Positions 1 through 21,400 of a stretch of 43,076 nt of DNA are shown in pieces. The notes under the pieces were generated by a model. That model was not told the DNA's origin and did not search any database. It saw only the letters and a program-made list of their open reading frames with translations. Within the stretch, counting starts at the first letter, position 1. The number at the start of each line of letters is the position of its first letter. This DNA comes from an uncultured Planctomycetales bacterium (GTDB lineage: Bacteria > Omnitrophota > Gorgyraeia > Zapsychrales > JANLHA01), in contig CAZWOH010000002.1 of assembly GCA_964635405.1 (NCBI GenBank), positions 1-43,076 on the forward strand, given 5' to 3'. Both the position numbers and the translations under genes were made by a program.

Positions 1-473
1 CAAAGGCCAAGACGGACGCTGGCATCAACCGAGTGTTGAGATTTGAAGATAGACTATTAGGTTATGACTACGTTGGCATCATCAAGAACCTGCCTGACAT
101 GATCGTTCAGATCGTTTCCGTACCGTTTGACTACGTGATTGATTCCCGAGTGAAATTATGGAATGCAAAAGATAGCTTTGGGGCATGGGCAAAAGCCAAG
201 ACGGACGCTGGCATCAACCGAGTGTTGAGATTTGAAGATAGACTCTTAGGTTATGACTACGTTGGCATCATCAAGAACCTGCCTGACATGATCGTTCAGA
301 TCGTTTCCGTACCGTTTGACTACGTGATTGATTCCCGAGTGAAATTATGGAATGCGAAAGACAGCTTTGGGGTATGGGCAAAGGCCAAGACGGACGCTGG
401 CATCAACCGAGTGTTGAGATTTGAAGATAGACTTTTAGGTTATGACTACGTTGGAATCATCAAGAACCTGCCT
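1..473 (+). repeat. In-frame 189-bp (63-aa) tandem repeat, >=2.5 copies, probably continuing upstream of the window
   Basis: Units lie at nt 6-194, 195-383 and 384-473 (partial; it diverges after ctgcct at 473). Nt 1-5 (caaag) match the tail of a unit (gcaaag), so another copy probably lies upstream. Unit peptide: AKTDAGINRVLRFEDRLLGYDYVGIIKNLPDMIVQIVSVPFDYVIDSRVKLWNAKDSFG(A/V)WAK. Copies 1 and 2 differ at 5 of 189 nt (cta/ctc, gca/gcg, gat/gac, aaa/aag synonymous; gca/gta Ala/Val). Confidence 0.9.
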
Positions 474-3400
474 GTTGTGTTGCGGCTTACTCACAATGCG
501 ATTGTTGACGCTTTTGCTAGATTTTTTGTCTGGCTTGTCCTATTTGTACTCGCGCCGAAAGTTTTTCGTTTAAATAAATTCGATGATTTCATCGCTTTAG
601 TGAAAGCCGTATTTACAAATGTCCAAGGGGACAAAGCTGGAATTTTAAGAGCAATAAGAGTTCTCTACGCTTCTGGCGCTTATAAGAGATTTGGCCAAGG
701 CGAATTAGTTCCGCATTTAATCAAATTATTAGAAGATCATCAGGACAATGCAATTATTCATATTGTTGCTTTAACAAAGATGCATCGCAAGACCCGCTTC
801 GGAGCTTTGAAAGGGCTCTTTAGCAAACTACTTCCTTTAAGTCTTTCAGAAAAATTAAGTCAGACAAAAACAAGAATTATCGTCGATGTCCGCAACATTA
901 AAGGCATCGGCGGCGATCGTGATGAAGAAATTTTTATTAATTTATTGGCACTTTCCGCTAACTTAGGTTTACAGCCGGATCAAATTGAAGTTGTGGCAGA
1001 CAAAGAGCAAAAAGTTTGGCGCTTTAGAAATATTGTTTTGCAATTTAATGATGAAGTTGCCGCTGGCCCGCGCCGCGGGATTTTGTATCTTCCTGAAAAT
1101 CTTCTTTCCAGTCAGGATGTCCTGATTAAGTCTAAGATCACAGAACAAAGTGCTGGCTTAGAAGCTCATCCGGCGACGGCTCCGCCGTCCGACGTAAAAC
1201 ATGAACAAATGGCTGCTTCATCTTCCGTCGTTTTACAACCTGCATTTGCAAAAATTTTAGTCGGCGGTGCGATTGTTTTAATGCTTAGCTCGGGATGGTT
1301 TTTGAGCACATTCCCGGCTCTAGGTTCTTTATGGGTCGCATTAGGTTTTGGCGTTGTTAGTAGTCTTCTTTATCTTGTAAGCCGCAATTCACAATCTCCG
1401 ACGAACGTTGGAATTGCCGCTAAAGTTTTTGGCTTGATGGCCATCACGGTTTTGACGACGGCTGGTCTAAAATCAATCGCATCTATTGCTGGAGTAGGAT
1501 CATTGTTCTTAGGGCAAGCAGCGTTAGCTGTTTTTGCAGGTGCTAGCGTAATTGCGTTGAGTGCATGGGCTATTGGATTCTTTAGCAATACGATTAATGA
1601 AAAAGTTATCAAGAGTTTGCGAATTGTTTCCTATCTTGCGATGCTTTTTGCGATGGTGGCAACGGGGATTTTGATTTTAGGGACAGCTTTCCCGGCGGCG
1701 GAAGGAATCATCGAAGGGTCGATGCTTGAATTGATGATCAGGGTTATCGGCGGTCTCTTGTCATTAGCCATCGTGATTTCGATCTTTAAGGGCGCGTTAC
1801 GGTTGACAACCCAAAACGTGAAAGAATTAAATGTCTATCGTTTAACTAATGAAGAGTTAAATATCCGTTTGCGCTATTACGGTACGCTTTTAGGCAACGC
1901 TGGACTTATTCCGCAAGTGCAGGCGATCATCGATAATTCCGATTTGCAAAAGAAGAGAAACTTCTTAATCGATTTGATGCAACGCGATTTCCAAAACAGC
2001 ATTCGCGCTGTTCAGAGCAAACCGACGCGCTTTGTGCGTATCGAAGCTTTCCGTCAGTGGTTACGTGCAAATCGTATTGAGTTTGCCGAAGAATTTATTG
2101 GCGCCTTGCTCTCGACGCTTAATTTTATTTGGAATATCGCCGGCAAATTCCACTTCACGCAAAATAATTCTGGCATTATCCGCAACTCAATTTTATTTGT
2201 GGTCGCAGTTGGATTGAGTCTTATCCCAGCTTTCTTCTTGTTCCTCGGAGAATTAACGTATAACTTCTTTGCTCGTCATGCGGTGCGCACCTATGAATTT
2301 TTGCGTATGCAGGAAGTTCTCTTAAATGCCTCGCAGCCTACAAAATTGACTGCTCAACAAATCAATGCCGAAAACGCTCGTCGTATTCTTAATGCGCAAA
2401 TTGCGGATGCCAATGTCAACAATAATGGACGTTGGTTGAGAGTCAAACGTGAATGGTTTGCTTTCAGCTTGGCGCATCCGATTATGGCCAATGCTTTGAA
2501 TTTGTTCAAAGGCCGTCTTTTGATCTTTATCGTCGCGGAACCTTTGTCGACGATGGTTAAAGCTCTCGCGGTGGGCTTAAACGGTACAGCTTTAGGAATA
2601 GTTTTAATGCCAATTGTTTTCGCTTTGACTTTAATCTTTCACGTTATTAACGAAATTCTTTTAAGCGTCTTTGGTTTGATCGGTGGAGCTTTGGGAGCAT
2701 TCCTTGTGAGCACAATGCTTTCTCATCGCGCTGATAGCATCGCGCGGGTTTTCCTCATGAGCTTTATATTGTCGTTTATTAGTACAGTCAGAACGATCGT
2801 CCACGCTTTTATGGAATATCGTTATGCCGGCCTCGTTGAAAAGAATAAATTAACAGGATTTAAAGATCAAAAAGGTCGTCCCGTCGCGTCGATTGAACAG
2901 ATTGCTTTAGCCCGCATGATTGAGAATCCAAAAGATTTAGAGAGCTGGATGAATGATGCGGCTGTGCGTCAACAGTTCCTTTCCGGATATCTTTATGCCC
3001 AAGATAGCAGTTTAGCCCGCATGGTTATCGGAAATAATCGTTGGTCAGCGCGAGTCAAGATTTATCTTAGCGAAGGCCGTGGTCGAATTTTGGTCTTTGC
3101 TTTGGCTATTCCTGCGGCGATTTTTATTTATCTTTTAAATACCTTTATTCCGTTTAATTGGATTCATAAAGCTACTGGCAAGCTTTTTGGGACAACAGGT
3201 GCTGGTTACGAAAGAATTGATACGCTTTATCAGCAATTAGGTAATCTGAAACTTGCATTTTGGTCAGGTGTCGTCGGTATGATGACGATCAATGCGGAAA
3301 TCGAAGGCGCGCTTCATTTTGCTGATAAGATCGGCGGGACACCGGGTCAAGTGATCACTTCTTGGGAACGCGATGTTCTTAATATGGGACATGCGTTTAT

Positions 3401-6400
3401 GGGTAATAATTCTCAGGAAGGGCTTTATGGACTTATAACGGCCGGCAATAAATTTATTTATGGCCCCGATGGTTTGGAAGTTGGACCTGCAGTGGTGACC
3501 AATGCCATTTATCGTCAGGCGGGTGTCAATACACAAGAGGCAAATGCAGCGCTTTATTATCAGGCTTACCGCGAAGGCCGTATTTCCAGCTTGCCTCCGA
3601 TTGCTTGGACTTTGGCTAAGGATATGGAAAAAAGAACGCATGCGACATTAACGCAAGAACAATTTGCGCGTGTGCTTATTTCTGCCGGCCTTATCGCTGA
3701 TACACGAGATGCCAATGCTAAGGGTAAGGCGCTAAGTCAAGAAGTGCGCGATTTGATTGATCCACATGTGGTTGATTTGATTGAGACAAAGTACCTTAAT
3801 AATGTCAGCAATCTATTTGAGAGAATTAAGATTGCTATTGGTATTCCAGGGCAAGTAGCTGACGGTGATTTGCTTGCTTCTGCGCAAAAATATAGCCAAG
3901 AAAACGATAAGCCGGTTGTGACCCTGCAGCTTTTCCCCAAGCAAGAGTCTGATGTTCGACAAGGAACCTATTTAGTTGTACGAAATGATAAAGAACAAGA
4001 AGTTTTAGTTGTTTCTGCGAATCGCCATGATCCACTTGGCGTTGTTCCTGCCGCGGGGATTATCGATCAAAATAAGGGTAAAGTTTTCACGGCATTTTTA
4101 GTGATTGATTCAAAGGATTTAGTGTCTGCTTTGATGGCTAAGAATCTCGCAGAAACACCGTTAGCTCAAAGTTTATCGGATATGTACCAGCGTGTTGCCG
4201 AAAAAATGGGCTTTAAGCCCGGCGAGGCTATCATTATGTTGCCGCAGCATGTCGGGTTTGAAAAATTTGCCCAAGCGCTTCAAGGCGAGAAGACAATTGA
4301 AGTCAAAGACAAGGAAGAACTTGAGCCTAAAGAGAAAATTAAACCCGGCGAAGAAGTTAAAAACGGGGAAAAAGAGACTCCAGCGATTGAAAAATCGTTT
4401 AGCCTTAACGATATTATTAAGGGGAATAAATTTGATTCCTGGAGAAGCGTTTATTTAAATATTGACGCTTTTGAAGTGATAAGAATGACATTAGGAAACC
4501 TTGGATTGCCGTTGCGCAATAATACATGGGAAGAATTCCAACGTACTATTTCCGTTTTTGATACAGATAAATCGCTTTCTTTTAAAGAAACTCTTGGAAA
4601 AATAATTAAGTTGGATTCGGACCGCATCGATAGCGAAAAACAAATCGCGAAGTTTAAGGATGTTGACAACAATCAATATGCCAAGAAGTTGTTTGAGCAG
4701 AAGAATCTTCAATATCAGTTGCAGGACGCGAGAGATTTAGCGATTGCGGCAGAAACCAGCAGTTGGGAGAGATTTGTTTTGTGGGTAGGGGAGCTCTTTA
4801 ATACAGCAGAGAGCCAGTTTAGAAATGAATTAAAGAATACTCAAAAAACAATAATAAATCTTGAGCGCACACAAGATGCTCTAAAGATAGCTCTTGCTGC
4901 TAATGTTTCCGTCGAAAATATTCGTAATCTGGGTGCTGAGCATTCTTGGTTTGTTGCGCAAGTTGAGGGCATTAATGTTCTTGAGCCTGCTGGCTATCAA
5001 AGACTTAAATCTACTTTGACTCAACGAACTATCCGAGGGAGCATCTTTATTTTAGATATTGATGAAGATGCCCGGGCAAGCATTATAACGTTGTTAAGCC
5101 ATCAAAACACCGTTGACGATAATTTGTACGCCTTGTTGGATCCTTCAAAGAAGACTGCTGCTAAACCTGCACTTTTAAATGGCTTGCGCTTAGCCATGGT
5201 AAATGCTGCTCAGCAAGAAGAAAAATTATGGAATAGTAATTCATCATTAGCTACGACCATAGCAAAACAAAAAATGCTTGCGGCGAGTGTTAACGCGAAT
5301 GCGATGAGTGTTCATGATTATTTTAATGCTTTGACAAAGAATTCCGATCTTCCGGCTGAGAAATTTGTCGATATGAAAAAGACGGCTTTAGAAAGAATCA
5401 GCAAGACGATAAAAGAACTTAACCTTTCTTCTCAGATGCAGATTGAAGAAACTACTTTTGTTTTAGCTGATATTTATACGAAATTATCTAAGGAATATCA
5501 GAAAAATTTGATGGTCCTTCAAAGCAGTAAAGAAGCTTTATTAAATAGTAATAATGACGAAGAGAAGAAAAATCTGCAGGCCCGCATAACGGGTACGCAC
5601 CAACAATTAGATACAATCGCGCAAGACTTAAAGTTGTTAAATAAATTTAAGAATGAATTAGCCAAGACAAATGTTTATGTTGCAGAAGATATTCTTGGTG
5701 CGCAAGAATTGTACGAATCGGTTGCACAACCGGCCTTGACTGTTTTACTCGATTATGATGCTGGGAAAGTTAGCTTTGCGGATGTCCGCTCAGTATTCTC
5801 AGTGATCAATGCGAAAATCGAATTATTAAATATTAAACATGAAATATTTATTACTAGAAATAAGATCGACAATTTGGAAAAAACGCCAAGCCTCGAGGAA
5901 GCAAATGTTCAAAATCCGAGTTTGTCTAACGCTCGCAATGAAGTTAGAAAGGCAGAAGCTGATGTGGCACGTACACATCTTGCCTGGTTGGAGGCGATAG
6001 TAGCTCAAACAAGTCATGGAAATATCGCTGACCAAAAAGAGCAATCTGCTCGCGTCTCTGATCCAAAAGCAGAAAAATTGTCAGCAGCTCCTTCGTCCCG
6101 CGCTGATGGGGCTGACAGTGCTTATTATGGTGTTGTTAACAGTAATGGTGAGCTTAAAGAAGCAGCAAAAATATTAAAAGACGTCTGGGCTGGCAAGGAC
6201 TCAGAACTTTTGGTTCGCGGCTTAACGTATTCAAAGGTTGTCGGGTCAGATTACAGGAACGGGTTTGATTGGGACAAAAATATTGGCGATATCCAAAAGT
6301 TAAAAGATATGGGTGTTAAAACGATTCGGACGTATTATCCGATCACCTCCGAGCGTTTTCTCAATGAATTAGCCAATCAGGGCATCAAGGCGATTATCGG

Positions 6401-9400
6401 CATTCCTAATTATGATGATCGTTATAATCCAGGCCCGGACATTAGCCGCGGCGGATATAAACATTATATTGAGAAATATAAAAATCATCCTGCAGTTTTA
6501 ATGTGGGAATTTGGGAATGAATACAATTACCATCCGCAATGGTTTAATGGGAATGTTGATCAATGGTATTCCATTTTGGAAAATGCCGCTGGTAATGCAA
6601 AACGCATTGATCCGATGCACAAAGTTTCGACAGCCCACGGTGAAGTTCCTTTAGCTGGTGTTTTACGTCAGGTTCCGTCGGTCGATGTTTGGGGGCTTAA
6701 TGTTTATCGTCCAAATGTTTCGGATGTATTCAGCGATTGGAAAAAAGCGGTTACAGAATCTGCAGCGCGCAAAGACCTGCAATTCTATTTTTCTGAAACA
6801 GGGGTTGATTCATTTGATTGGGCTGAAAGAAAAGAAGATCAGGGTAAGCAAGCTCGTCACATGAAAAATATTTGGAATCAGGTGCAGATGCAAGCTAAGA
6901 CTCAGCCTGGTGTTTTCTTAGGGGTAACATTTATGACTTTTGCGGATGAAAGTTATAAATCGGAAAAATCAGATGACAAAACTGCTTTAGAAAAAACCTC
7001 TTTGTCAGCAAACCGCAACGGACAAAGCAATCGTGAAGATGCGAATTTGGTTATTGCGCAAGAAGCGGTTAGAAATGCGCAGGCGGATGTTGTTCGTGCG
7101 CAGCAGACCAACAAGCAAATAATTCAAGCCCTAGCTGCATTAGAACAAGCTCAAAAACAAGTTCTATTGATTTATCAAAAACGGTTGGATTTAGTAACTG
7201 CTGTCGAAAAGGCACAGAAAGAAGTCCAATTGGCGTTTAACAATGGTGATTTAGCCGCCTACACGAAAGCCACTTTGACGCTCGCTATAAGCGCATATCA
7301 AGCTGGTTTTAGCAATGATCGCGATAAAGCCAATTTGCGTAAGCTACTTATTGAAGGAAGTATTCTTCCGATACTTAACGCACCGATGGTCATTATTGAG
7401 CAGCAGGACATTAAAGCGCTTAGAACGCAATTGCGTGATCAGTTAACTGAGCTTCTTCCGCGTTTATCAATTGACACTTTAATTAAACTTCAGAAAGCAC
7501 GTTCGAGTGAAGATATTCTCAAAGTCGTGATGCACGATTATTCTGGGCTTGATACGGCGACCAAACGGCTGATCGATGAAATTAATACCGTCTTTTATCG
7601 TCTCGAGGGCCGCAATAATATCGGGAATTCTGCTCCGCTTGATCGCAATGAAGCGCTTTTCTTGCCCGGACAAGGCGGAACATTTAGTGAATTAGACAAG
7701 CCGATTATTCCTTTGATTAATGGCGTTATAAAGAGCCGTTTCCCCGATGTTAATGTTCATGATTGGTGGACGAGATTTGCGATTGTCCAAATTCATATTG
7801 AAAGCAATGGTAATGCGTCAGCGGTCAGTTCAGCCAAAGCTCGCGGATTGACTCAGGTTACCGAACCAACATGGAATCGGACAGTGGATTACATGGTTGC
7901 TCAAGGAATTATTCCTAACCGTAATGGCTGGTCATTTGCTGATAATGCCGATAATCCGGTTAAGAATTATATGGTTGGGCATTCGTATCTTGCCATTATT
8001 ATTAAGGAAATTGATCGTAAGTTTGCTGGTAAAGTTTTGACCTTAAGTGAATTTACGAATGCCGTTTCAGCTGCTTACAATGCGGGCGAAAATTATAGCG
8101 CCGCTTTCTATTTAAAACCGACGATTGATGAAACTGTTAAATATGTAGCCAAGGCGGCACATCTTTTAAAACACATGACAACGGATGAAAACGGTCGTAT
8201 CGTTTCTCTGGATGAGGCGGGACGAAAGGTCTTTTTCACTCGAACACTGGCTGCTTTGCGGATCAAATCTGACAGCATTAATAATAAAGATTTTGATCAG
8301 CTTGCCGCCAAGTTCGACGGAACAACCCTTTCTACAGAAGATTCCAGCAATTATAAAATTAAGCCGCAAAGCAGCGATATCGGCCCGCTGCTCGAGATGA
8401 TCGTTCCGCAAAAGTCTGCGGTACGCGCAATCTTAAGCGGTATTGTTACTCAAGTTGCGACTACTCCTTATGGCCAGTATGTCAAAATTTCTTCGATGAT
8501 CAACGGACATCGCGTTGAGCAAATCTTTGCTTATATGGGTGGTGCTTTGAAAGCCGAAAAGGCCTTAGGCCAAGAAGTTAAGGCGGGTGCTTTAATTGGC
8601 ATGTCTGGTTTGCAACAAGGTGCTAATCGTTATCTTTTTGCCCTCAAGATCGACGGCAAAGCGGTTGATGTGATGAGCGTTAATGAAAAAGAAGACGGTT
8701 CTCTAAAAACGATTCGCACGATGGTCGCTAAAGCTGTGCAAGACAATTTTAACGCGCTTACCGGTCGCGCCACGATCAAAGTTATGACACCAGAAGAACG
8801 CGAAGACGCGATGAAAGAAGATTTGGCTAAGATACGTCAAGATGCAGAAGACAGGATGGCTGCTTTAGATTTATTGCGTAATCGCAATGATGCGGAGCGT
8901 CAAGAAGTAGCGCGCAGGAACGCTGCCGTGGATATGGTGCGCGCTATTGCGAATACTGCCCGAACTCATCCCGAAACGGCTTTACATGACATGGTCGAAG
9001 AATTAGCAAAACTTGATGCAACAAGCAATGGAAGACTAGGACACGGTGTTAGTATTCAACTGAGATTTAATCCGGCCGCTCTTGGCTTAAATGTTGGAAT
9101 TGGCCGGCAGGCTGTTTGGGGTGGATTGAATTTATCGCTTGTCGGTACCGGTGAATTCTTTACGCTGGCAGAAGTTGTCATGCAGACAAAGAGTCTTTTA
9201 GGTCCTCCTGCCCCGGGTGTTTCCTCTGCGCAGAGAACGCTTGGCATCTTGTTCTATGTGGATGCCTTAATGAGTGTTTACAATTCATTGGTGGAACGTT
9301 CGCTTAACTTAGAAGAATATGGCGGGATCGGAATGGATCAGGGCACCAATCCGCTCTTTGGACGCACCAAGATTATTGTCAGCCCAGAAATCAAAGGCAA

Positions 9401-12400
9401 TGAATATCAGATCACGAAGTCGGGCAGTGTTTTCATGCTCACGCTAACTGAACTTTACAAAGATTTTATCAAGCTCACCTTTGGCCAGATTCCGGGTGTT
9501 GGCGTGCTCTTTGGTGGCGATCAAGCGCCGCGCGTTCTGACGAAGACCAAAATGGACGCTTATTATCAGCCCGGTCAGCGCGAAATGAGATTTATGCTCG
9601 ATGCTTATAGTAATGATAAGAGTGATGTTCAGTTTGTTTCGTATCGCTGGAAGGCCGACGATAAGGGCTTCCCAGTTCCTTTACTCGATGGTCAGAAGCA
9701 AGAATGGTTTGTTACCTTGTATAAACGCTGGAAAGATGATTCCGGAAATATCCATCGTGAGGAGTATGGGACATTTATTCGTTTCTTAACTTTACCCGGT
9801 GAGAAAAAAGCGGTTACGGACGATTTCTTCGCGCTTCCGGCGAATCATGGTTATAAAATGGAGCCGGGACAAGAATATGTCTTTCCGTCGATGGCCTCTT
9901 TGCAAAGCATGCAGGATATGTATGATGTGCGCCGCGGTGTGGACAGCCAGACCGGCGAGGTAATTTTGGCTGGCGCATTTGATTACACAGGAAAGCTTAT
10001 TCGCAAATACTATAAAGCGGACGGTTTGCCCCAGACTTTACCGGGGAGCGGTTATGAAAAAGACGGCTTAACAACTTATTTCGGTCGCGCGATCGTTAAA
10101 AATATTCCTTATTTACCGGTGTTGACCAATGGTAAAGATAGAGAAGGAAAATATATTCATCCTATCGTGATATTTAGTCAAGAAGCGGCTAGACAGGCTT
10201 ATTGGCTTCATACTCAAGAACAGGATCCGAATGTGACGGCTCATATTGTGACCAATCGCGGACGCAGTATTCCGGTTACCGGTGATATTAGTAAGGTTGA
10301 GCAGGAAGTATTGCAATGGGAGTATGACAAAAATGGATTGGCCATTAAGCCGGATGTTACTTTTGAGCGTCTTAAGATTTTTGAACAGACCACCAAATCC
10401 GTCGTCAATGATCGTGGCAATAAGATCGGATTTAATTCAGAAGATTTCACCGTCAAAACCGCCGAAACGACACTTAAAGATATTAGCAGATTGAGCAAAC
10501 AGCCTATTGCTGCTGACATTTTGATTTCGGATCCGATGCTTACAATGAAGCAGCCGGTGCAGATTTATCAATTTAATGGTCAGCGGATTTTGGTGGTCAA
10601 TACCGATTTATTAAAAGAACAGGTTAAAGAAGCTCAAGTGCTTAATGATGTTCAATTAGATATTGCGGTTAGCAATATTAGTTCTTTGGCTGTCGATCGC
10701 AGTGCTTTTGAAGCGGCTGTTGTGCAGCAAAGCAGTACGCGTTTAGAACGCACGATGACGATGCCTCAGGGCATCAAACTTGTTAAAGATTCGCGTTTGC
10801 AGGCAGGAGAGTATGGTATTCTCGTCGAGAATACATCACAGAAACCGATTTTCATAGCCCATTTACCGGGACGTTCAGTATATATCTATACCATGGAAGA
10901 GTATCGCAAATTAGTCACGACCCTGCAGAAGCCCGGGCAAGACATTACGCTTGTTTGGAAGAATAAGGCTGGCGAGGTGGTCGGTAAACTTGAAATCGCT
11001 TCGTATGCGGGTAAACAACCGACCACTTTGATCGTCGACGGTATGGGGCTTCGTCCCGGTGAGATCGGCGTTGGGGAGTATGGCGCGAACTTCCCCGATA
11101 TTGCTAAGAAGATTAAAGAATCCGACGCATGGGCAGCCGTTGAATCACCCAATGGAGAGATTAAAGTTATTACTGATCCTAAGGATCTTCCGTCGACAGA
11201 AAACAAAATAGTGACGATTACGCCTAAAGAAGGCCCGGCTCCTGCAACTGTTGGCACAGATCATATCGCTTCCCAACAAAAGAATTTGCCTGCTGTGCTC
11301 AAACAACCGGATAATAGTACCAAGGTCGTCGGGGTTTTTGATCTTGGAAAGAAAGAAGACGGTAATCGTAAGGGCATAGGTGTTTCTATAAAATCTGGTT
11401 TGCCTAATCCTGAATTACGCAATGGCCAGCCAATGTATAACGATTTTGAAGCGATGAAACCGGAAGCTGGCGGATTAGAAGCAACGGAACTTAGCTATGA
11501 AATTTCTGTAGCAGTTTATCGAATCATTAGGACTGTCGACCAGAATGGCGATAGGGTTACGATCGGAGAAAAACTCATTGAGCATATGAACAAAGTCTTT
11601 AGCCAGCCGGGCGCGGCTGGCGTTGGCTTCTTCTTTGGCGGAAATCTGCCAGTAGCTTTGAGTCAAAAAGACTTTTCGTACGCTCAAGAAATACAATTTA
11701 TCGCGCCGGAAGTTTTGCGTGCCGCGGGCATCAGATACGACGGCAAAGGGTATTTGATTCGTGTTGAGCAAAACGGAAAAGAATTTACGCGCACCTTGCC
11801 CGGCAATGCCATGGTGATCTTGCCGCAAGATTTCAAACTTTTGGAAACGAATGTGGAAAGCCGCTATCCGGTTATTGTGCAGGCTAATGAGAAAACGATT
11901 GGAGAGAATTTAGTTTTCAATAATGGTGTTGGTGCTTTGCGCGCTCGCGGCGTAGGTTCTATCCCGTTGACCCGCGAAATGCTTAAAATGTTTACGGATA
12001 ATAATCCTTACAATGGCACGCTCTTACCGATTCCGACGTACACGTTTAATGAAAAGACCGGCGAAATGAACCAGAAGATGGTCGTCGTCAACTTCAAGGT
12101 TAACGGCGTTGATGTCAGTGGGGCTATGTTGGACTTAGGACGCGAAGGAATTGCTTATATGAAACAGTTGACTAAGACGACCTTTACATTGCCGCTCAAA
12201 GAAGGCAATGCGACTTTGGGGATGGAAGAATTAAATCGTCGAGCGTCGGAGTTTGGCGTCGAGTGGACTAAGGATAATCGTTTGTTAAGCATTCTTTCAA
12301 TGCCTGCCGAAAAAGCTAATCCTCAAGCACAAAGCTTTATTGATCTTGGTGGACGCAATCGTGTGGCTATTGGTCTTTCCGATGATTTTAAGACGATAGC

Positions 12401-15400
12401 CCAAGCGTATAAGAGCAATGGTCTTTATATCGTCAACGGTAAACTTGTCATCGCTTCGCAGTTGTCAGCGCTAGAGCGGGCGACTTTGAGTGCCCGTGAT
12501 CAGGCGATGATTCAAGTTGTTGGACCAACCATGCCGCTTTTTGGCCGCTTTATGACTCGCGGACAAATACAGGATTTAGCTAATCGTGCGCTTGCTCCGA
12601 TTGCCGGCAAGCATTTGCCTCTGCAGGCTACGGGTACAGATAGCAATGAGCTGTATCCGTACTATTATGATGCAAATTTAAATAATCGTTATGATGAAGA
12701 TGATCCTATTGTTTATGTTGCCAAAGATCAACAACCGACGGGCTTTGTGGCGCTTGAAGCTTTGTTTGTTGAGCCTTTTGTTCCTGCGACGGGAACGTCA
12801 TTACCTGCGGTTATGCCTTTAGCGCCATCGGGTTCTATGGGGTTGTTTAATGCCTTGCCGCTTTTAGGCAAAGCTGTTAGCGATGTGTTTCGTGCTTCTG
12901 TAGTAGAAGCCGCGGAAATTCCTGTGTCTGTTAAGCCTGTCGCAAAGTCCTATGGTTTGGTATATAACCCGGGTGTTGATTCCGGTATTTTGGAAGTCAA
13001 TGCTGCGGGCAAGAAATTTTTAAATTCCCTTGAAAAACAATATCAGGATAGTTTGGGTGTTGGACGCGCGAAAGATAAAGGCAGTGTTCGTATGACGCCA
13101 GAACTTTTAGCGCAGATTATTAATTTGTCTGCGGGTCGTATTGAAGTTACAGGTGAAGCTGTAGAGAGCGACCTTGGCCAAGCACGATGGCTGGGCGAGC
13201 AAGCGGTCTTTAAGCTTAAACTGACTCGTGATTTAGTCATCAATGGTGTGGTCGTTCTCCCGGCTGGTTCGATTTTAGAATCCGGCGTTCGCGCTAAAGA
13301 AATCTTTGATGCGATCGAAGCTGTTGCCAACATCAAGGGCGATCAGAGCAAACAAGACGTTTTAAAGAAATTACAATCGATCTTTAAGGGCAATGAACAG
13401 ATCGTCAAAGAATTTGTTGACCGTTATTACGGTGCGACGATCGCCCGCACGCCGCAGGGCACAGTCTTCGTCGAGAATAAAGATTTTGTCCGGTATTTTG
13501 ATTTAAATCATGGCGTCATTTATATCAAAGGCGAACCGGTCTTGCGCGACGGCAAGCCGGTTTGGGAAAACGGTCGTCAGGTCTTTAAACTTTTATCCAG
13601 CCGTGAAATTCGACTTTCCGACGGGACATTGATTCCAGCGGGCACGGTGTTGGAGACCGGCAGCGGCACTAATGAGCTTCTTAACTTATTAACAGCGGTC
13701 AGCGCAGGCTCAAAGTCAAAGGATTTCTTGCGTCAGGAAATAGTCAAGCGCCGTGAGACCTTTGGCATTGATAAACAGACAGCGCAAGAGTTTGTCGAAA
13801 AATATTACGGCGGAGTCATGGCTCGGGGTGTCACGCACACGGTCTTTTTGAGCGCCCGTGAAGCGGCGCAAGCCTTTATCAATTTAAAGATGGGCCGCAT
13901 TGCTATCAGTGGTCAACCGGTCATTATGGATGGTCGGCAGTTGCTTAAGAATGACAAGCCAGTGTATAAGCTTTTGACAGTCGGCGAAAAAGAAATTGCC
14001 GGCCGCGTGACCTTGGCAGGGAATACGGTTTTGGAGGTTGGCGTAGAATTTCAATCTTTGCTTGATCTTCTTGAGGGCACAGCAAATAGCGAGAAGAGTA
14101 AGGAAGAAATACTTGTGCAGTTGATGGAGCATGGTTCATTATTTGAAGAAAAGTCTTCTGGCCCCTGGGGCATGATTGGCTCAATCTTCTACGAGTCAAA
14201 CATCAAATCTTTCGTTAATCGTTTCTACGGTAATCCGCTTTTGCGTGTGTCTAGGGGAAATACTCAAGGAACATTCTTTATGACTGATGAGCAGTTCCGT
14301 CGCTGGATTAGTCTTACAGATGGCTTGATTGATATTAGTGTCGAACCGGTTCTCGTCAACGACCAAGAACTTTGGAAGAGTGGCAAGCAAGTCTTTAAGC
14401 TAACAACAAATAAAGAGATTAAAATTGCTCAAGGAGTAGTTATACCAATTGGAACAGTTGTGGAGATTGGACAAAAATCACGCTCAACAAAGATTCTAGA
14501 TTTGATGCTTATGGTTTCTGAGGGCGGAATGGAAGATGAATCTTTTAATAAAATTGCTTTAGAAAAAGAATTGATGGCTTACAAAGATGTTTTGGATACT
14601 AGCCGGGAACAGATTCATGAATTTATTAAACATTTTTACGGCAATCCGGTGTTGCGGACTAAATATGGAACGGTCTTCGTGCCTGCTGATATGGCTAAGA
14701 AGTTTATTAATTTTAAGAATGCATGGATCAATATTGCCTCTGAATCAGTCAAGAGAGACGGCAAGGATTTATGGGTTGAGGGGCATCAAGTCTTGCGCAT
14801 GATTACTCCGTTTGAGATCAAGCTGGGGGGTAAGGTTATTCCTGCTGGAACGGTTTTGGATGTTGCTCCCGGATCTAAATATGATGAATTGCTCAAAACT
14901 ATTCAGGCTGTAGGAAACGGTATAGCACGGGATTCTGATAAAGAGAAGGCGGATTTAAGTCTGAGGCTTTCGAAATTTAAAGATGAGTTGGGTGCTGATG
15001 AAGCTAAAATTAAACAGTTTGTTGAGAATTATTATGGTCATGGTTTTTTTCAGGTGAGTAATGGTGCCCAAGTTGGCACTTATTTAGTCAGTGAAGAAAA
15101 TTATCGTCAGCGGATTAATCCGGGCAACGGGTGGACTTATCTACATGGTGAACAGCTCGTCGAATCTGTAGATGCCCAGACGGGTATTAAAAAATATCGT
15201 CATGGCCCCGATGGAGAGGAGATTTATCTACTGCGCACTATTCATCCCATGGATGTGAATGGTGGCGACAAACTTCCTACGGGGGTTTTATATGAGCCAG
15301 GGATTAAGTCTTTGGCTGCAGAAGAATTAACAGCCCTGCGCAAGAAGGGCTTGGAATCTGGAATTTTCCATACTGATAAAGGTTCCAGAGTCGGTGATGC

Positions 15401-18400
15401 GCAGACTCCCGCTCAAGTTATTGATTATGTCCATGGTCGATCTTATTTGACGAGTAAAGGTCCTAAGGAGGCGCTCAAGGTAACCAAGGACACCGTTATC
15501 ATTAATGGGGAGGTTGTACATGTGCGGGATGCAGTTTTTGAATTTTCCAGTGTCAAGGATGGGATTATCACGAAACAGCAATTTATCGATGCGGGCTTAG
15601 ATGCAGAAAAAATTATTAATGCCTTAATTGATAGGGAGTGGATGGAAAATATTTCTGAAACAAATGTGCGTTTAATACAAAACGTTGAAGCTATTCGTGG
15701 CCAATTAAAGAAATTGTTCCCAGCTGATTTTGAAAAGATATTTAGTATTTTAGAACAGTCCCAGTATACGCCTATTGCTTTGGCATTTAAGAATTTAGAA
15801 GCGAAGTTTCCTCGAGGATACATGCTGGTAAAGGAAAATGAGTGGACTCAGTATGTTGGATTAAATGAGTCGATACTGCGAGGCATGTTGTTAGGCACAA
15901 ATGGCAAGATGGTTATTGAACCTGTCAAAAATGAAAAAGGCCAATTGCAATTTGCTTACCAACTCACAAATGTGACATTGTCCGACGGACGGTTTAAGGA
16001 AAAGACGTTTGTTCAGTTTACTGATGAATCTTTTAAGATTTTGACAAACCTCTTAAAAGCTCAAGGCAACTTAAACAGCTATGGCTTGGTTCGCACCGTT
16101 TCCGGGCAACAGTTGCCATTGACTGCACAACTTCTTAAGGAATGGAATACACGCATTAATGGGGGCTTTCTTGACACTGTTTTTGTGAAAGGCAAGGCGG
16201 TTAACGAAAAGGATAAATATGAATGGCGTGTAGATCATCAAGGACATGAGTTAGATGGTGCGCGGGTGAATCTTGACCTTGCGGGATTTATTTATTTAGG
16301 AATTTTAGACAAGATACAACAAGAAGGACAGGCCGTTGACCACAAGGGAGAGACTATTGTAGCTCAAGCTGTGACTTCCGATAAGAAGCGGGCCTTACCC
16401 CCGATCACCGAGCCAATTTACCGTAAGCTTCAGAGTAAGACAGGATGGAATGGAATTTTTGTTGAGTATAGACATATTGAGATTGAGAAGGAAGGGTTTG
16501 TCTATTTCTTTGATGCTAATGGTGACGGTGAATATAATGATGGCGAAAAGATGATTGTGACTTATGATCCTCCGCTAGGCGCTTTACCCTTGTTGGCCGC
16601 AGATGTGCAGGTTAATAAAGCTGGTAAAAAATTGCTTCAGGCGTTGAGCGCCGAAGAGTTTTCAGTGTCTCTTAAGGACGGCCGTTCTTACTTTATTAAC
16701 AAGGAACAATTTAAGGATCTTATAAACGATAAAGCGCAAATTCGTCAAGCGATTAGGGCAGGACGCTTGACCCGTGATTCCCAAATTTCTCAAATTACCA
16801 AGTTTGATCAGGATGGCAACCCGAAGGTTCGTTACTATTTGTCTGAAACTTGGGAAAAGTCCAAAGCCCAGAAGGCTGGAGGAATTATTGCCGAAGTTCA
16901 AATTAAAAAAGTTGGATTAGATTGGAACGACGTTTCCAAGAAATTGATTGAAAATGGTTGGGCAACCAAAATTGAACAAGATAAACTTAAAATTGATTTA
17001 GAGATGGACTTGGAAAAGAAAAAAGGTCAGATGTTGGCTGTTTTTGGTAAAGATTTCCCAACGATTTTGTCGATGATACAACAATCCCGCAACTTAAAGG
17101 GCGCTAAAGCAACGACGATGCATGAGGTTATGCCTGACGGAACTCTTGGGGAACAGATTGGTGAATCGGCGCCTTTAAATAATATGAAGTTAAAGAAACC
17201 AATTGTAATGGCAGAAAAAATATTTTCAGTTCAGGAGGCTACATTTAAGTCTCAAGCGCGGGAATTTATGATTGATGTCAACATTATCGTTCGTCGTACT
17301 GCTAATGGAGCTTTGGAAAAGATCGCGGGCGTTAACGCTAAAGGGGACACCATCCTTGATTTTTATCCTGCCGAAAAGAATATAGAGAGAAAAGATGGTA
17401 ATGACGTTAAGGTCGACGGAAAAGTCTTCGTTGGTCGTATCGATGAAAAAGTCCGACCTATTTATTATTACAGAGCAAAAGGAAATAATTTTGAGATTCT
17501 CAACCGCAATGGTGATCTGGTTGAGAATGATGCTAGTAAGTTGGTCGGTTACGCAATTTTGCAAGAAGGATATAGTTTAAGTGATAAGCTTCCTGAGTTT
17601 ATTAAAGAATATTTAGCGGGGCGGGACTTTATTATTACGGCTGAACTCAATGAGAAAGGTGAGTTTAAGAAAGGCTTCGTCATTGACCGTGATGGTAACC
17701 GCACTATGGCGCAGATTGACAAGCTTTTGCATACGAATAAAGCTGGTCGAGATCAGTACACGATTCAATTTATGTCGGAAGATGAAGACATTGTTGGGCG
17801 TAAACAAAGAAATGGTGAGAAGGACATTGAGTATAATCTCGCTAATTATAAAGCTGTGCTAATTGATAAAACATATCAGGTTTTAAATCCTGAAGATGAA
17901 GAAGAGTATGTTCTTCGGTCTAGTAAAGAGAAAATTGGTAGTAATGCAATGAATCAGCGTCTTGAAGAGGCATTGAACAAGGCGACTCATAGTGATGTTA
18001 GGCTCAAGGAAAAAATCCGTTTGGAATTTAATGAGGGTATTGAGGTTATTGAAAATAATTTAGGTATTAAAGAAAACATGGGACATAAAAAAGGACAGGC
18101 CAAATTTGATAAAGCAGATGTCGAACGTTCTTATGGCCTTGGGTCTGCGGAATATCGCGTTAGGGGCGATCAGCAGGCGCGGATTTTACTCGCGGTCATT
18201 CGTGATGAGAAAAACCAAAGCGGTGTACAGGGCCAAGATGTCATTATCAATGTTAAGTGGGACGGGACATTGCCTGTGAAAGGCTATAAAATTTCAGCCT
18301 ATGGGATCGTTAGTACCGTTGAACCCAGGAAAGACGAAGTCACTAAAAAAACGGTCAAACTTCCGCTTAAAGCTGTGGCCAATGGGCATACTAAAGAATT

Positions 18401-21400
18401 TGAAGACGCTGTTGTTAAGCAGGATGAGCTGTTAGTCGAAGTCTTAGAAACCCCGTGGCATCAGCAGACCAATGGTTTGTATGAAGAATCCAAAGCGTTA
18501 GCGGTCAGTCGGTATCTCTTACCTAATGATCCTTGGAATCGTTCTTTAGCCAAGAGAATGCCGTCCGGCGAAGTTGCTCTCGATCAATTAAATAAAGATC
18601 AAGGGAAATACGATCTCTCTCCCGGTCAGTACGTGACTACGCCGAATATTAAAGGTTTCTCATCGGAAGCTAATCTTTTGCGTCAAACAGAATTTATCGG
18701 TATGTTCGATGAAGATGGCGACGGAATAAAGGAGACAGCTCGCTACAAAGCTACCAAAGAGGCTATTGAGAAAACCCAATTCGTTATGATCGGATACAAC
18801 CTTAAGACAGGGATATATTATGAACAACGTCGATACGTTGATAAGACTTTGCGTGTGTATTATTTTGATGGGTTTCCGCTTTTTGTTAATTATATAGATA
18901 ATCCTTACGCGGATTATCCTAAAGAGTATCAGTTTAGTAGCTTAGAGAACAGAGTATATACCGATGAAAAAGGTGATGTTTATTATATCGTGATCGAGCA
19001 TTTGCAGACGCGCGATATTTTTGAGCGATCCAAGAATTGGATTTCTGGTGAGACCGTAGTTTTATTTAAAAATGGTAAGCGTGTTTATACTTCCGATCGG
19101 TTTAAGGGGCAGACTTCGCCGTATTTGACGACGTTTAGTTTAGAAGACGTATTGCGCAATTCTATGGTTGGTCAAGCTGTTAGCCCTAATGAGTTTAAAG
19201 AAATTATGGCCGCTGCCCGTAAAGGTAAGCTTTTAGAGTTTGATGTTGCAAAGCAAAATCCTGCTAAAGAGCCTTATGTGGGTGAAGGCACAGACAGTTG
19301 GACGAACTTTGCTTTGAAAGTTTTAGGGCCAGGATTATTGTGGGTAGTTGCTGCAATCTTTGGTATACCGGCGGTGTATTACGCTTTAATCGCTTTCGCA
19401 TTGTGGTTTTATCGTGTAGTGATGGGTAAACGTGGTCAGGTCCGGATTAATGATCCGATTTTGGATGATTTGACTGGCATGGGCTTTACTCCGGCTCAAG
19501 CTCAATTTATTATTCGCGACTGGAGCATTAATGGGGCGTTTAAAGGGCCGAAAGATTTTCGTCTGCGCATGGCGGGTGATCGTGTGTCTGAATTTAACCT
19601 TGCTAATTTACACATTGAGTCTTCTAGCCCCGAAGGCTGGGCTGTGAAACATATTATTAAGCGCTGGATTACCCGGACACGTTTTGCAGGTGCATTAAAA
19701 CACGCCGCACATTTTGATTATGGTTATACTCGTCGTGAAGGTGAAAAGTTCAATGGATTTAGCAAGGGTGATTTAATTAATTTAAGCAATGCTGCAAACA
19801 AGAGCGCTGCGGATTTTGCGCAAGCTTGGGGTGCCTTGTATCAGGTGTCGGCTGAGGAACAATCAGGTTTTGTATCGTTTACGACGATGGTGACAACTGC
19901 TGGATATATTTCTGAAGATGAGATTCGCAGTGTGGTTAACAGTAATTTTATTACTTCATTTGTAGGCAAGGTCAGTACTCGCCGCGCTGCTCAGATTATT
20001 TTGCGTAAGATTTTTGCGATAGTCCGCGATTCTCAAAATTATAACGAAGCCCTTGAGGCGCGAGTCGATGAACTTATGAAATCGACCGGAATGGATAAAG
20101 TTTTTTCGGATCAGGATTTTACTTTAAAATCTACCTTTTTGAAAAATATTCAGAATGCTCGCCTCTTGCCCGCCGGGTTAAGCTTGCACGACTTTGATAT
20201 TACATCTAAGAATGGTCTCCTTGCTTATAGCTGGGACGATTTGCACAAAAGCCCGCCGTCGGATCGTCAAATGGTTAATGCTTTAGTCTCAATTGAGAAG
20301 TTGTTTATTATGCAGATGGTGTTGCAGAGATCGCTTTTTGGTTTGACGGGTCAAGGTCGTCTTGAGGAATATCTTTGGACTAAACATTTATATCCGATTT
20401 TGAAGAGTAGCGATGTAGAAGACTATATGGATGTTCTTCCAATTATTCGATTTTTTAAAGAGGTTTTTCATCAACTGCTACACAATGAAGTTCACAAGAA
20501 GTTAGACGAAGTTCGCGATCCTAAGGGCAAGATCGTTTATATGCAGCAGATATTTAATGAAGAATTGCTTAATGATGCTTTTCGTTATTTATTGGGCGTC
20601 AAGGATCCAAGTCTTTCGGATGAGACGTGGATTTTAAGCGATAAAGTAATAAGTGAGATTCAACCTTTGGCGCAAGAGATCAATCGTTATTTCGATGCTC
20701 ATGTTCAATTTTTCCGTCAAAATAATGGCTTAGCTGAGTTTTCAGCAGAAAGTGTTAAAGAGCTTTTACAAGACGAAAGTGTCAAAAAGATTATTAATCC
20801 TGATGAAAAGTTGTTGACAAAGGACGAACTTGACCAACTTGGTGAAGGCGATAAATCGGTTTCTAGGAGTTTGGTTGAGAAAATTATTATTATTCGTGCA
20901 AGTATGCGTTTGGAGCCGATTCTTAAGGCTTTTGTCAATGTTGTGGATAAGGAAATCAAAATGCCGGTGGCTAAGAATCGGTTGGCTGTTTGGATGATTC
21001 ATTTGGTCCCAGTTATAAAGATGGTCTTTAGTTCCAAATGGCGCAAGAGAATTTTCTCCTCCGGTGGTCCGTATAATCAGACAGCCAGAGATTTCTTGCG
21101 TCGGTTTAATCATTATATTTTATTTGGATCAGTCACGGGATTGTTTGTTTATTTGAGTATGCATGCAGTGGGATATTTTAGTCATGTTGGTGTTTCTGCT
21201 TCTATTACATTGCCGACAGCTATGTTGGGGGTCCCAATATTTGTTCTTTTAAGTTTGCTCTTTTTTGGGGTAGTTTTAAAGGCAATTCGCAAGAATTTTG
21301 ATAAAAAGAGAAACGATATTACAAGCGGCACAAAGACTCCCGCACAGAAGGCCGAGCTTTTAGTGAAAGCGAATAACACCTTCAAGCTTTGGTTACAAAT

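Follow-up and report, generated by a model that had tools for sequence, protein, structure and literature searches.

In this study we focused on a 43,076-nucleotide (nt) stretch of DNA, hereafter the window, from an uncultured Planctomycetales bacterium that the GTDB taxonomy places in the Omnitrophota (assembly GCA_964635405.1, contig CAZWOH010000002.1, positions 1 to 43,076 of the forward strand), and analyzed its region at nt 6120-8690, which a preliminary description made from the sequence alone had called a cell-wall attack cassette. The reading that we favor on balance is that this region encodes three modules lying in the exported part of a giant membrane protein, the core of which is an SLT domain predicted to cleave the glycan strands of peptidoglycan, followed by a catalytically dead LytM-fold domain (dLytM) that would either hold peptidoglycan and so position the SLT domain, or gate its activity. 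The third module, a glycoside hydrolase (GH) domain located upstream, appears to be a neighbor with an evolutionary history of its own. The region corresponds to amino acids (aa) ~2040-2896 of the giant protein and is neither a gene nor an operon of its own; all the features described below are on the + strand.

The SLT domain and the degenerate LytM domain

Judged from its sequence, the SLT domain (aa ~2585-2725; nt 7755..8177) is a complete family-1 domain with the full motif set, for which cleavage of glycan strands is the predicted activity. It scores 46.8 bits against Pfam PF01464 for a cut-off of 21.3 (E value of 2.6e-12), and 43.6 bits in a second chunk. The catalytic E2600-S2601 (nt 7800-7805, with the Glu codon at nt 7800-7802), found within IHIESNGN, aligns to the catalytic IESGGN of EmtA/MltE, the GLTQ and AYNAG (aa 2691, nt 8073-8087) motifs are both present, and the catalytic Glu is kept in all cassette homologues. 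The AlphaFold model has a predicted local distance difference test score (pLDDT) >90 across the domain, and Foldseek matches it with a probability of 1.0 to MltE, Slt70, MltC, and Slt from Pseudomonas aeruginosa, so that the model and the structural matches both bear out a goose-lysozyme-like α-helical fold. When compared with the two closest relatives of the region—loci L001 and L002, which are labelled "uncultured Planctomycetales" and are 89-92% identical over the whole region—the ratio of nonsynonymous to synonymous substitution rates (dN/dS) for the SLT domain is 0.19.

The dLytM domain (aa ~2791-2895; nt 8373..8687) was delineated by Pfam, by Foldseek, by MAFFT alignment, and by a profile built from the eight members of its family (profile A1). 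The match to Pfam PF01551 is borderline, with 27.4 and 30.7 bits for a cut-off of 28.7. Searching the PDB with profile A1 retrieves M23/LytM structures only, the best being 3slu (1.2e-6), followed by ShyA, lysostaphin, LytM, SpoIIQ, and Csd. At the structural level, Foldseek matches the AlphaFold model with a probability of 1.0 to lysostaphin, the LytM domain of EnvC (4bh5), LytM (root-mean-square deviation of 2.6 Å), DipM, and Csd2, with a deviation of 2.5 Å over 94 columns for EnvC. Alignment by MAFFT with active M23 proteins, together with the PDB alignments, shows that the HxxxD motif is absent, G2794 being at the position of the His and E2798 at that of the Asp, while the catalytic His of the "YaHl" motif is replaced by Y2844 and the HLH motif by R2876-Y-L2878 (within RYLFAL, nt 8628-8645). 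The lone His in the 113-aa module (aa 2783-2895) is H2836, which is in a non-ligand position, and no realignment could rebuild a zinc site because there is a single His in 113 aa. That dLytM has no zinc site and is unable to cut peptide bonds is a robust prediction from these alignments.

The loss of the zinc ligands is a property of the family. The His residues are missing in all eight members, most of which have a Glu at the position of the Asp (E2798 in the window). The closer members share the motifs VEQ[IV]F and R[YF]LF.LK..G..VD, and family motifs remain conserved down to 34% identity. Furthermore, the dN/dS of dLytM relative to L001 and L002 is 0.09, the lowest among the GH, SLT, and dLytM modules, and such strong purifying selection argues that dLytM is a functional, albeit noncatalytic, domain and not a relic. 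This degeneracy probably arose independently of that in EnvC, NlpD, and DipM, since dLytM resembles active M23 enzymes more closely than it does EnvC or DipM, and is devoid of LysM or FtsX-binding parts. Indeed, profile A1 matches EnvC (6.6e-3) and DipM (0.065) more weakly than active M23 enzymes (1e-6 to 1e-4), and Pfam identified in the flanks of dLytM no LysM or similar accessory domain, with no FtsX-binding architecture either.

The two domains are joined by a linker (aa 2726-2790; nt 8178..8372) that in the AlphaFold model consists of a short β-hairpin and a helix followed by a low-confidence stretch, with a pLDDT <50 at model residues 184-224 (aa 2753-2793), and that is probably flexible. 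This SLT-dLytM model was built on 18 sequences from database proteins, in preference to a single-sequence model (pLDDT of 38.7) that was not used.

Profile scans confirmed the order SLT then dLytM in L001 and L002, and in two more distant loci (L004 and L005). Three additional loci are partial or weaker cases: in L006 the sequence upstream of dLytM is truncated, in L008 an SLT domain precedes a weak dLytM-like match, and in L003 there is only such a weak match. Both domains are also found in P0016, a complete stand-alone protein of 606 aa with an N-terminal hydrophobic segment. Wherever upstream sequence exists, the upstream neighbor of dLytM is an SLT domain, while the length of the linker between them ranges from 65 to ~330 aa among homologues. 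Together, these comparisons identify SLT-dLytM as a conserved two-domain unit of ~330 aa, the parts of which appear to move together within giant genes. Searches of larger collections extended this set little. HMMER, run in full against 1.84 billion representatives, returned 18 matches at E <= 1e-3, a word-indexed search of 5.8 billion clusters with profile A1 found only the fragment P0024, and a scan of Joint Genome Institute (JGI) metagenomes for dLytM relatives found none. A phage origin of the cassette was also considered, and was rejected when tblastn against 50,697 phage records produced no match and PHROGs only a local match to the SLT domain.

The GH158-like module and the block downstream of the cassette

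The relationship between the GH module and the other two is clarified by a scan of one genome per species, which identified 27 loci: L001 and L002, plus 25 that share only the GH module with the window and are mostly metagenome-assembled genomes (MAGs) of Candidatus Omnitrophota. More generally, GH or cassette modules are shared, outside L001 and L002, mostly by MAGs of Candidatus Omnitrophota. The window has no marker genes, and an origin in Omnitrophota, within the PVC superphylum, is the most likely. For 20 of the 27 loci, the frame that contains the match remains open at both ends of the locus sequence (which is ~20 kb in ten), identifying these loci, as far as their sequences extend, as fragments of very long genes too. 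In the window the GH module lies ~300 aa upstream of the SLT domain, whereas in L004, L005, L006, and L008 the SLT and/or dLytM domains and the block that follows them are ~2,400-3,200 aa upstream of the GH module. In addition, there are stand-alone GH homologues of 340-540 aa in Bacteroidota and Pontiellaceae MAGs. On these comparative grounds—its shuffling relative to SLT-dLytM, its GH158-like nature, and its stand-alone homologues—we regard the GH module as independent and separately shuffled, and the three modules as not forming a single unit. A related observation comes from L024 (Candidatus Omnitrophota MAG Gpa_28), in which frame 2 contains two GH158-like copies (aa ~1959-2207 and ~3247-3486) ~1,300 aa apart, which shows an apparent duplication of the module inside one giant gene.

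The GH module (aa ~2062-2330; nt 6186..6992) was assigned as a GH158-like (β/α)8 module of clan GH-A by sequence searches of the PDB and by a family profile. In Pfam there are only weak matches to the GH2 TIM barrel, below cut-off. When the single sequence is compared with the PDB, the best matches are the GH158 enzymes 9oro (3.6e-8) and BuGH158 6pal (2.3e-7), and a profile of 12 homologues widens the gap, with 3.2e-17 for 9oro versus 2.5e-10 for the best GH2 entry. The acid/base E2173 in FGNEYN (nt 6519-6521) and the nucleophile E2265 in FSETG (nt 6795-6797) are both in frame, and these Glu of the NE and SE motifs are invariant in the 12 homologues, with the NE motif aligning to E135 of the structure chain, which corresponds to Glu143 of GH158(Pro). 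GH158 are retaining endo-β-1,3-glucanases, in which the acid/base is Glu143 and the nucleophile Glu229 (PMC13195107), and the spacing between the two Glu is 92 in the window compared with 86 in GH158(Pro). Judged from its PDB matches, without a dbCAN/CAZy model, the module is therefore closest to the GH158 β-1,3-glucanase lineage, which is not a family of peptidoglycan enzymes. There are nonetheless several differences with the GH158 of known structure (BuGH158 6PAL and GH158(Pro) 9ORO/9P25). Identity is merely ~30% over 140 residues, the Ig-like C-terminal domain of these enzymes is not evident, the sequence after the barrel being a helical spacer, and known GH158 enzymes come from a polysaccharide utilization locus, while the present module is inside a giant protein. 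The dN/dS of the GH module relative to L001 and L002 is 0.12-0.13.

Another difference concerns the C-terminal end of the barrel (nt 6945..7046), which alignments with 11 database homologues and 11 giant open reading frame (ORF) homologues show to have diverged. The window, L001, and L002 all have DESYK (aa 2315-2319) in place of the conserved DEWWK, and NREDAN (aa 2343-2348; NREDANLVIAQ) in place of NEE[WY][WF]G.VD..G.PK, while the DEWWK and NEEWWG motifs are kept by all the other members of the GH family, including the module in L005. The second aromatic residue of NEEWWG corresponds to Tyr291 of GH158(Pro) in a weak local alignment with matching numbering, and Tyr291 hydrogen-bonds the nucleophile (PMC13195107); the aromatic motif that aligns weakly with it is lost in the clade of the window. 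Since the Glu pair is kept but two aromatic motifs are lost, the GH active site is possibly altered, and GH activity in this clade may be altered or weakened.

The GH module is followed by a spacer (aa 2346-2570; nt 7038..7712) that is helical, has a high content of Ala, Gln, Glu, Lys, and Leu, and is 96-99% identical to L001 and L002. A heptad pattern is marginal and limited to aa ~2352-2415 (nt 7056-7247), with a score of 0.78 compared with a shuffle mean of 0.59 and 4.5% of the shuffles reaching that score; this crude heptad test does not support coiled coils in the upstream and downstream spacers or in the SLT-dLytM linker.

These results clarify the standing of the preliminary description. 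The residues on which it was built—E2173, E2265, E2600, AYNAG, and RYLFAL—are all present in a single open frame, with the three Glu at the codons it had named, and each of its assignments has been borne out: a GH-A module with both catalytic Glu, an SLT module with its catalytic Glu and AYNAG, and an M23-like module that has lost HxxxD and HxH. Profile hidden Markov models back these assignments unevenly, from SLT well above cut-off to a borderline M23 and sub-threshold GH2 matches. The coiled-coil spacers between modules that it described are retained only, and marginally, at the start of the spacer after the barrel. By contrast, its grouping of the three modules in one cassette gives way to a conserved SLT-dLytM unit with a GH module that is found elsewhere in other giant ORFs, and its view of the GH module as acting on the cell wall is at odds with the GH158 β-1,3-glucanase lineage and with the loss of aromatic motifs in the clade.

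Immediately after dLytM there is a block of ~550 aa, which we named block X (aa ~2897-3460; nt 8691..10382), that has been swapped, or is hypervariable, among genes that are otherwise nearly identical. Up to aa ~2899 the protein is 80-99% identical to L001 and L002, but directly after dLytM the identity is down to 18-42%. At the same time, block X is 24-31% identical to the blocks found after dLytM in L004, L005, L006, and L008. Evidently, from these identities, this block has been exchanged between otherwise near-identical genes, yet kept as a family across distant giant ORFs. It has no match in Pfam, PHROG, NCBIfam, or the PDB (the latter searched with a five-sequence profile), and contains no recognizable amidase. 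Values of dN/dS past aa 2896 are not meaningful, as the sequences are too diverged or swapped. Upstream of this point (nt 6186-8687), the synonymous divergence dS relative to L001 and L002 is a mosaic, with ~0.07-0.10 in the GH tail and spacer and 0.4-1.1 in SLT and dLytM, a pattern that suggests recombination among related giant genes.

The giant gene and its exported part

The entire window is one stop-free frame on the + strand that starts at nt 3 and runs for 14,358 codons with both ends open, while each of the five remaining frames contains 595-1,348 stop codons. Because this frame runs off both ends of the window, a list of ORFs shows no long ORF. The empty list had first suggested a recoded stop codon or an alternative genetic code, which is ruled out by the presence of one frame free of every stop. 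The window is thus an internal fragment (nt 3..43076) of one giant gene resembling those reported for Omnitrophota, encoding a protein of at least 14,358 aa, and purifying selection relative to L001 and L002 is in keeping with this.

Within this fragment, a Kyte-Doolittle scan identifies 23 hydrophobic segments, with two clusters of predicted transmembrane (TM) segments: ~12 in aa 166-1047 (nt 498-3143) and ~9 in aa 6437-8385 (nt 19311-25157). The last predicted TM segment of the N-terminal cluster is at aa 1029-1047 (nt 3087..3143) and the next hydrophobic segment starts at aa 6437 (nt 19311), which leaves ~5,400 aa (aa 1048-6436) without any predicted TM segment. Lys/Arg-rich flanks are found before aa 1029 and after aa 6475, that is, on the far sides of this gap. 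There is no Cys in aa 1-8972, and all 19 Cys lie within aa 8973-13975 (nt 26919-41927). In bacteria that lack disulfide machinery, exported proteins typically avoid Cys; the Cys-free part is presumably exported and the Cys-containing part presumably cytoplasmic. The TM gap, the Lys/Arg-rich flanks on its far sides, and the distribution of Cys suggest that aa 1048-6436 are outside the cytoplasm, which would put all three modules in the exported part, a location where a wall-active cassette makes sense.

The rest of the fragment can be described briefly. GC skew is positive across the whole window, with more G than C on the coding strand. At its start (nt 1-474) is a tandem repeat with a 189-nt unit in 2.5 copies with 97% matches, encoding 63-aa repeats that L002 matches at several offsets; this may reflect a variable number of copies or the collapse of repeats in the assembly. 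A weak match to SBP_bac_3 is found at aa ~7336-7473. In the C-terminal third (aa ~10800-14358; nt ~32400-43076), there are domains for sugar and phosphate metabolism of cytoplasmic type. These include an APH-type kinase (aa ~10808-10874), an AMPK-beta/CBM48-like glycogen-binding module (aa ~10954-11013), a HAD phosphatase (aa ~11059-11245), a weak match to GH77 amylomaltase (aa ~12021-12082), DUF1152 (aa ~13004-13158), a weak match to CofD (aa ~13784), and a glucosamine-6-phosphate isomerase/6-phosphogluconolactonase (6PGL)-like domain (aa ~14181-14302). This combination hints at processing of imported sugar or glycogen. Pfam detected no SecA_DEAD, glycosyltransferase, methyltransferase, or NUDIX domain in the 14,358-aa fragment of this incomplete gene; many domains in giant proteins are visible only by structure prediction (West-Roberts et al. 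2023).

Possible roles, precedents, and significance

In the mechanism that we favor, the giant protein would be anchored in the membrane by multiple passes with its GH-SLT-dLytM part exported. The SLT domain would cleave the bond between N-acetylmuramic acid (MurNAc) and N-acetylglucosamine (GlcNAc) in the glycan strands of peptidoglycan, and a flexible linker would tether it to a noncatalytic LytM-fold domain without a zinc site. This domain might then act in one of two ways: its remaining groove might hold peptidoglycan stem peptides and thereby position the SLT domain, or the domain might work in cis by contacting the SLT domain and controlling its activity, which is what the degenerate LytM domain does in PrgK. 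The upstream GH158-like barrel would be aimed at β-glucan, not at peptidoglycan. By analogy, a noncatalytic accessory or regulatory role of dLytM beside a glycan-strand cleaver appears reasonable, because the domain is degenerate yet conserved and under selection, and because PrgK and DipM provide precedents.

The closest parallel is PrgK, from the type IV secretion system of the Enterococcus faecalis plasmid pCF10, in which one membrane-anchored polypeptide likewise combines an SLT-family cleaver with a degenerate, metal-free LytM. The LytM domain of PrgK, which was shown to be degenerate by crystallography and is fused to SLT/MUR, is not itself a hydrolase but lowers MUR activity, as does the CHAP domain, and both can bind peptidoglycan (PMC11323569). 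There are, however, clear differences. The order is LytM-SLT-CHAP in PrgK versus SLT-dLytM here, where there is no CHAP domain; PrgK is a ~870-aa protein from a Gram-positive bacterium, while the present protein exceeds 14,000 aa and comes from a diderm lineage of the PVC group; the likeness is at the level of the fold, no sequence relationship beyond it having been sought or found; and the inhibitory nature of the PrgK LytM does not imply the same direction for dLytM. EnvC, NlpD, and DipM are similar in that they have a LytM fold with lost zinc ligands and act without catalysis, but they are separate proteins that act in trans and have LysM or coiled-coil/FtsEX-binding parts, whereas dLytM is fused to its presumed partner. 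A further likeness, that of a lysozyme/SLT domain followed by LytM/M23 within a large wall-penetrating structure, is seen in gp13 of phage phi29 and in internal/ejected proteins of cyanopodoviruses. Foldseek matches spanning both domains include proteins from Synechococcus phage S-CBP4, Pf-WMP4_33, an internal protein of Anabaena phage A-4L, and a "Morphogenesis protein 1 hydrolase", and profile A1 retrieves PDB 9k2v_E. The M23 domain of phi29 gp13 is an active endopeptidase. It differs in this from dLytM, which is predicted to be dead, and tblastn found no sequence-level similarity to any phage record.

Giant proteins of Omnitrophota, as described by West-Roberts et al. 2023 ("Archaeovorins") and by Nielsen & Lui 2026, share with the present protein a very long ORF, many TM segments, a mosaic of divergent enzymes, and an occasional SLT domain, and giant ORFs from Candidatus Omnitrophota MAGs contain homologous modules; M23/LytM and GH158-like modules are unmentioned in the main text of these two reports. 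Giant Omnitrophota genes, the occasional SLT domain in them, and the fusion of an SLT-type enzyme to a dead LytM (in PrgK) were therefore known already. What is new, as judged from the sequences compared here, is a divergent dLytM subfamily that has its own motifs, always comes after an SLT domain, moves with it as a unit, and precedes a swapped block.

Several points weigh against the reading that we favor. The alignment underlying the structural model is shallow (18 sequences), and both its predicted template modeling score (pTM) of 0.55 and the low pLDDT of the linker bear on any contact between the domains. Linker length varies ~five-fold among homologues, and because of this variability two independent tethered domains fit better than a fixed autoinhibited complex. 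The great rarity of the cassette makes for a small comparative base, P0016 alone having scored on both domains when 5.8 billion clusters were searched with a two-domain profile (A2). The hydropathy scan from which the topology was derived, along with the positive-inside rule and the distribution of Cys, is crude, and the hydrophobic aa 6437-6475 may cross the membrane either once or twice. Finally, whether the chemistry is that of a lytic transglycosylase or of a muramidase is not settled by sequence, because the "SLT" domain of PrgK is a hydrolytic muramidase (PMC11323569).

The favored reading does not specify whose wall would be cut. A serious rival, though one that we consider less likely than not, is that the cassette opens the bearer's own peptidoglycan for the passage or assembly of the >5,000-aa exported portion, with dLytM restraining the SLT domain to prevent self-lysis. 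Specialized lytic transglycosylases open the cell's own wall in type III/IV secretion, flagella, and conjugation (VirB1, EtgA, FlgJ, and PrgK). The protein is predicted to be membrane anchored with very long TM-free loops, the cassette is in the most conserved part of the gene (80-99% identity to relatives), PrgK—the closest architectural and regulatory precedent—serves the same purpose, and peptidoglycan synthesis in Omnitrophota is complete (bioRxiv 10.64898/2026.06.07.730766). This explanation has to contend with P0016, in which the cassette is also a stand-alone secreted protein, and with the hypervariable block directly adjoining it, which suggests a variable external target.

The original proposal of a three-part attack of GH, SLT, and dLytM on another cell, with an EnvC/NlpD-type dLytM activating an adjacent muramidase-type enzyme, is in our opinion less likely still. 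All three modules do exist within 2.6 kb, and the presence of hypervariable block X next to the cassette leans towards an external target, target-recognition modules being often swapped as this block is. Moreover, prey adhesion and wall digestion have been proposed for Omnitrophota giant proteins, in which SLT domains were noted (West-Roberts et al. 2023), and DipM stimulates autolysins including lytic transglycosylases (PMC10336132). However, the GH module is unlinked to SLT-dLytM in other giant ORFs and resembles a β-1,3-glucanase family, and the cultured relative V. archaeovorus attacks archaea, which are without murein. As for the built-in regulator that the preliminary description had seen in dLytM, the idea itself stands as plausible in view of the PrgK and DipM precedents and of the selection on the domain. 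Its EnvC/NlpD kinship does not stand, dLytM being nearer to active M23 enzymes than to EnvC/DipM and without LysM or coiled-coil/FtsX-binding parts, so that the analogy is functional at most; nor is an activating role implied, since PrgK, the only characterized fusion of this kind, is inhibitory. The word "attack" was itself an inference, and the data are equally compatible with the bearer's own wall as a target and with an attack on another cell.

It is improbable that dLytM acts in trans on a separate hydrolase of the bearer, whether an amidase or another lytic transglycosylase, its adjacency to the SLT domain amounting to tethering. This is the canonical role of the degenerate LytM factors EnvC, NlpD, and DipM, the LytM domain of DipM binding the lytic transglycosylases SdpA/SdpB and the amidase AmiC (PMC10336132), and both the good structural match to EnvC LytM (4bh5) and the variable linker length, which argues against a fixed complex in cis, are consistent with it; but Pfam detects no amidase domain anywhere in the 14,358 aa, and SLT is invariably the upstream neighbor where upstream sequence exists. 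More speculative, and in our estimate very improbable, is that dLytM mimics LytM factors of a prey, docking onto amidases or lytic transglycosylases of the victim that are controlled by EnvC/NlpD/DipM and switching them on. If true, dLytM would be displayed at the surface of a predatory or episymbiotic nanobacterium, beside a hypervariable targeting block, and the victim would contribute to the breakdown of its own wall as the fused SLT domain cuts glycan strands. Least credible of all is that dLytM is a functionless relic, or a still active peptidase with unconventional ligands, for although all canonical ligands are gone and most members have a Glu (E2798) at the position of the Asp, the lowest dN/dS of the three modules and motifs conserved to 34% identity speak against a relic, and one His in 113 aa cannot build a His/Asp/His zinc site plus two catalytic His.

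Omnitrophota giant genes have been proposed to be involved in predation or episymbiosis, yet for nearly all of their sequence there is no function that could be tested. The SLT-dLytM unit is different in this respect, since at ~330 aa it is small enough for expression on its own and would be specific for murein-type walls. Its activity on bacterial sacculi, on the bearer's own wall, and on archaeal envelopes would bear on the choice between attack and own-wall remodeling. If our favored reading is correct, the unit would join PrgK as a second, independent example of a glycan-strand cleaver fused to a dead LytM domain that may control it, and would be informative about the frequency with which LytM enzymes have become regulators.

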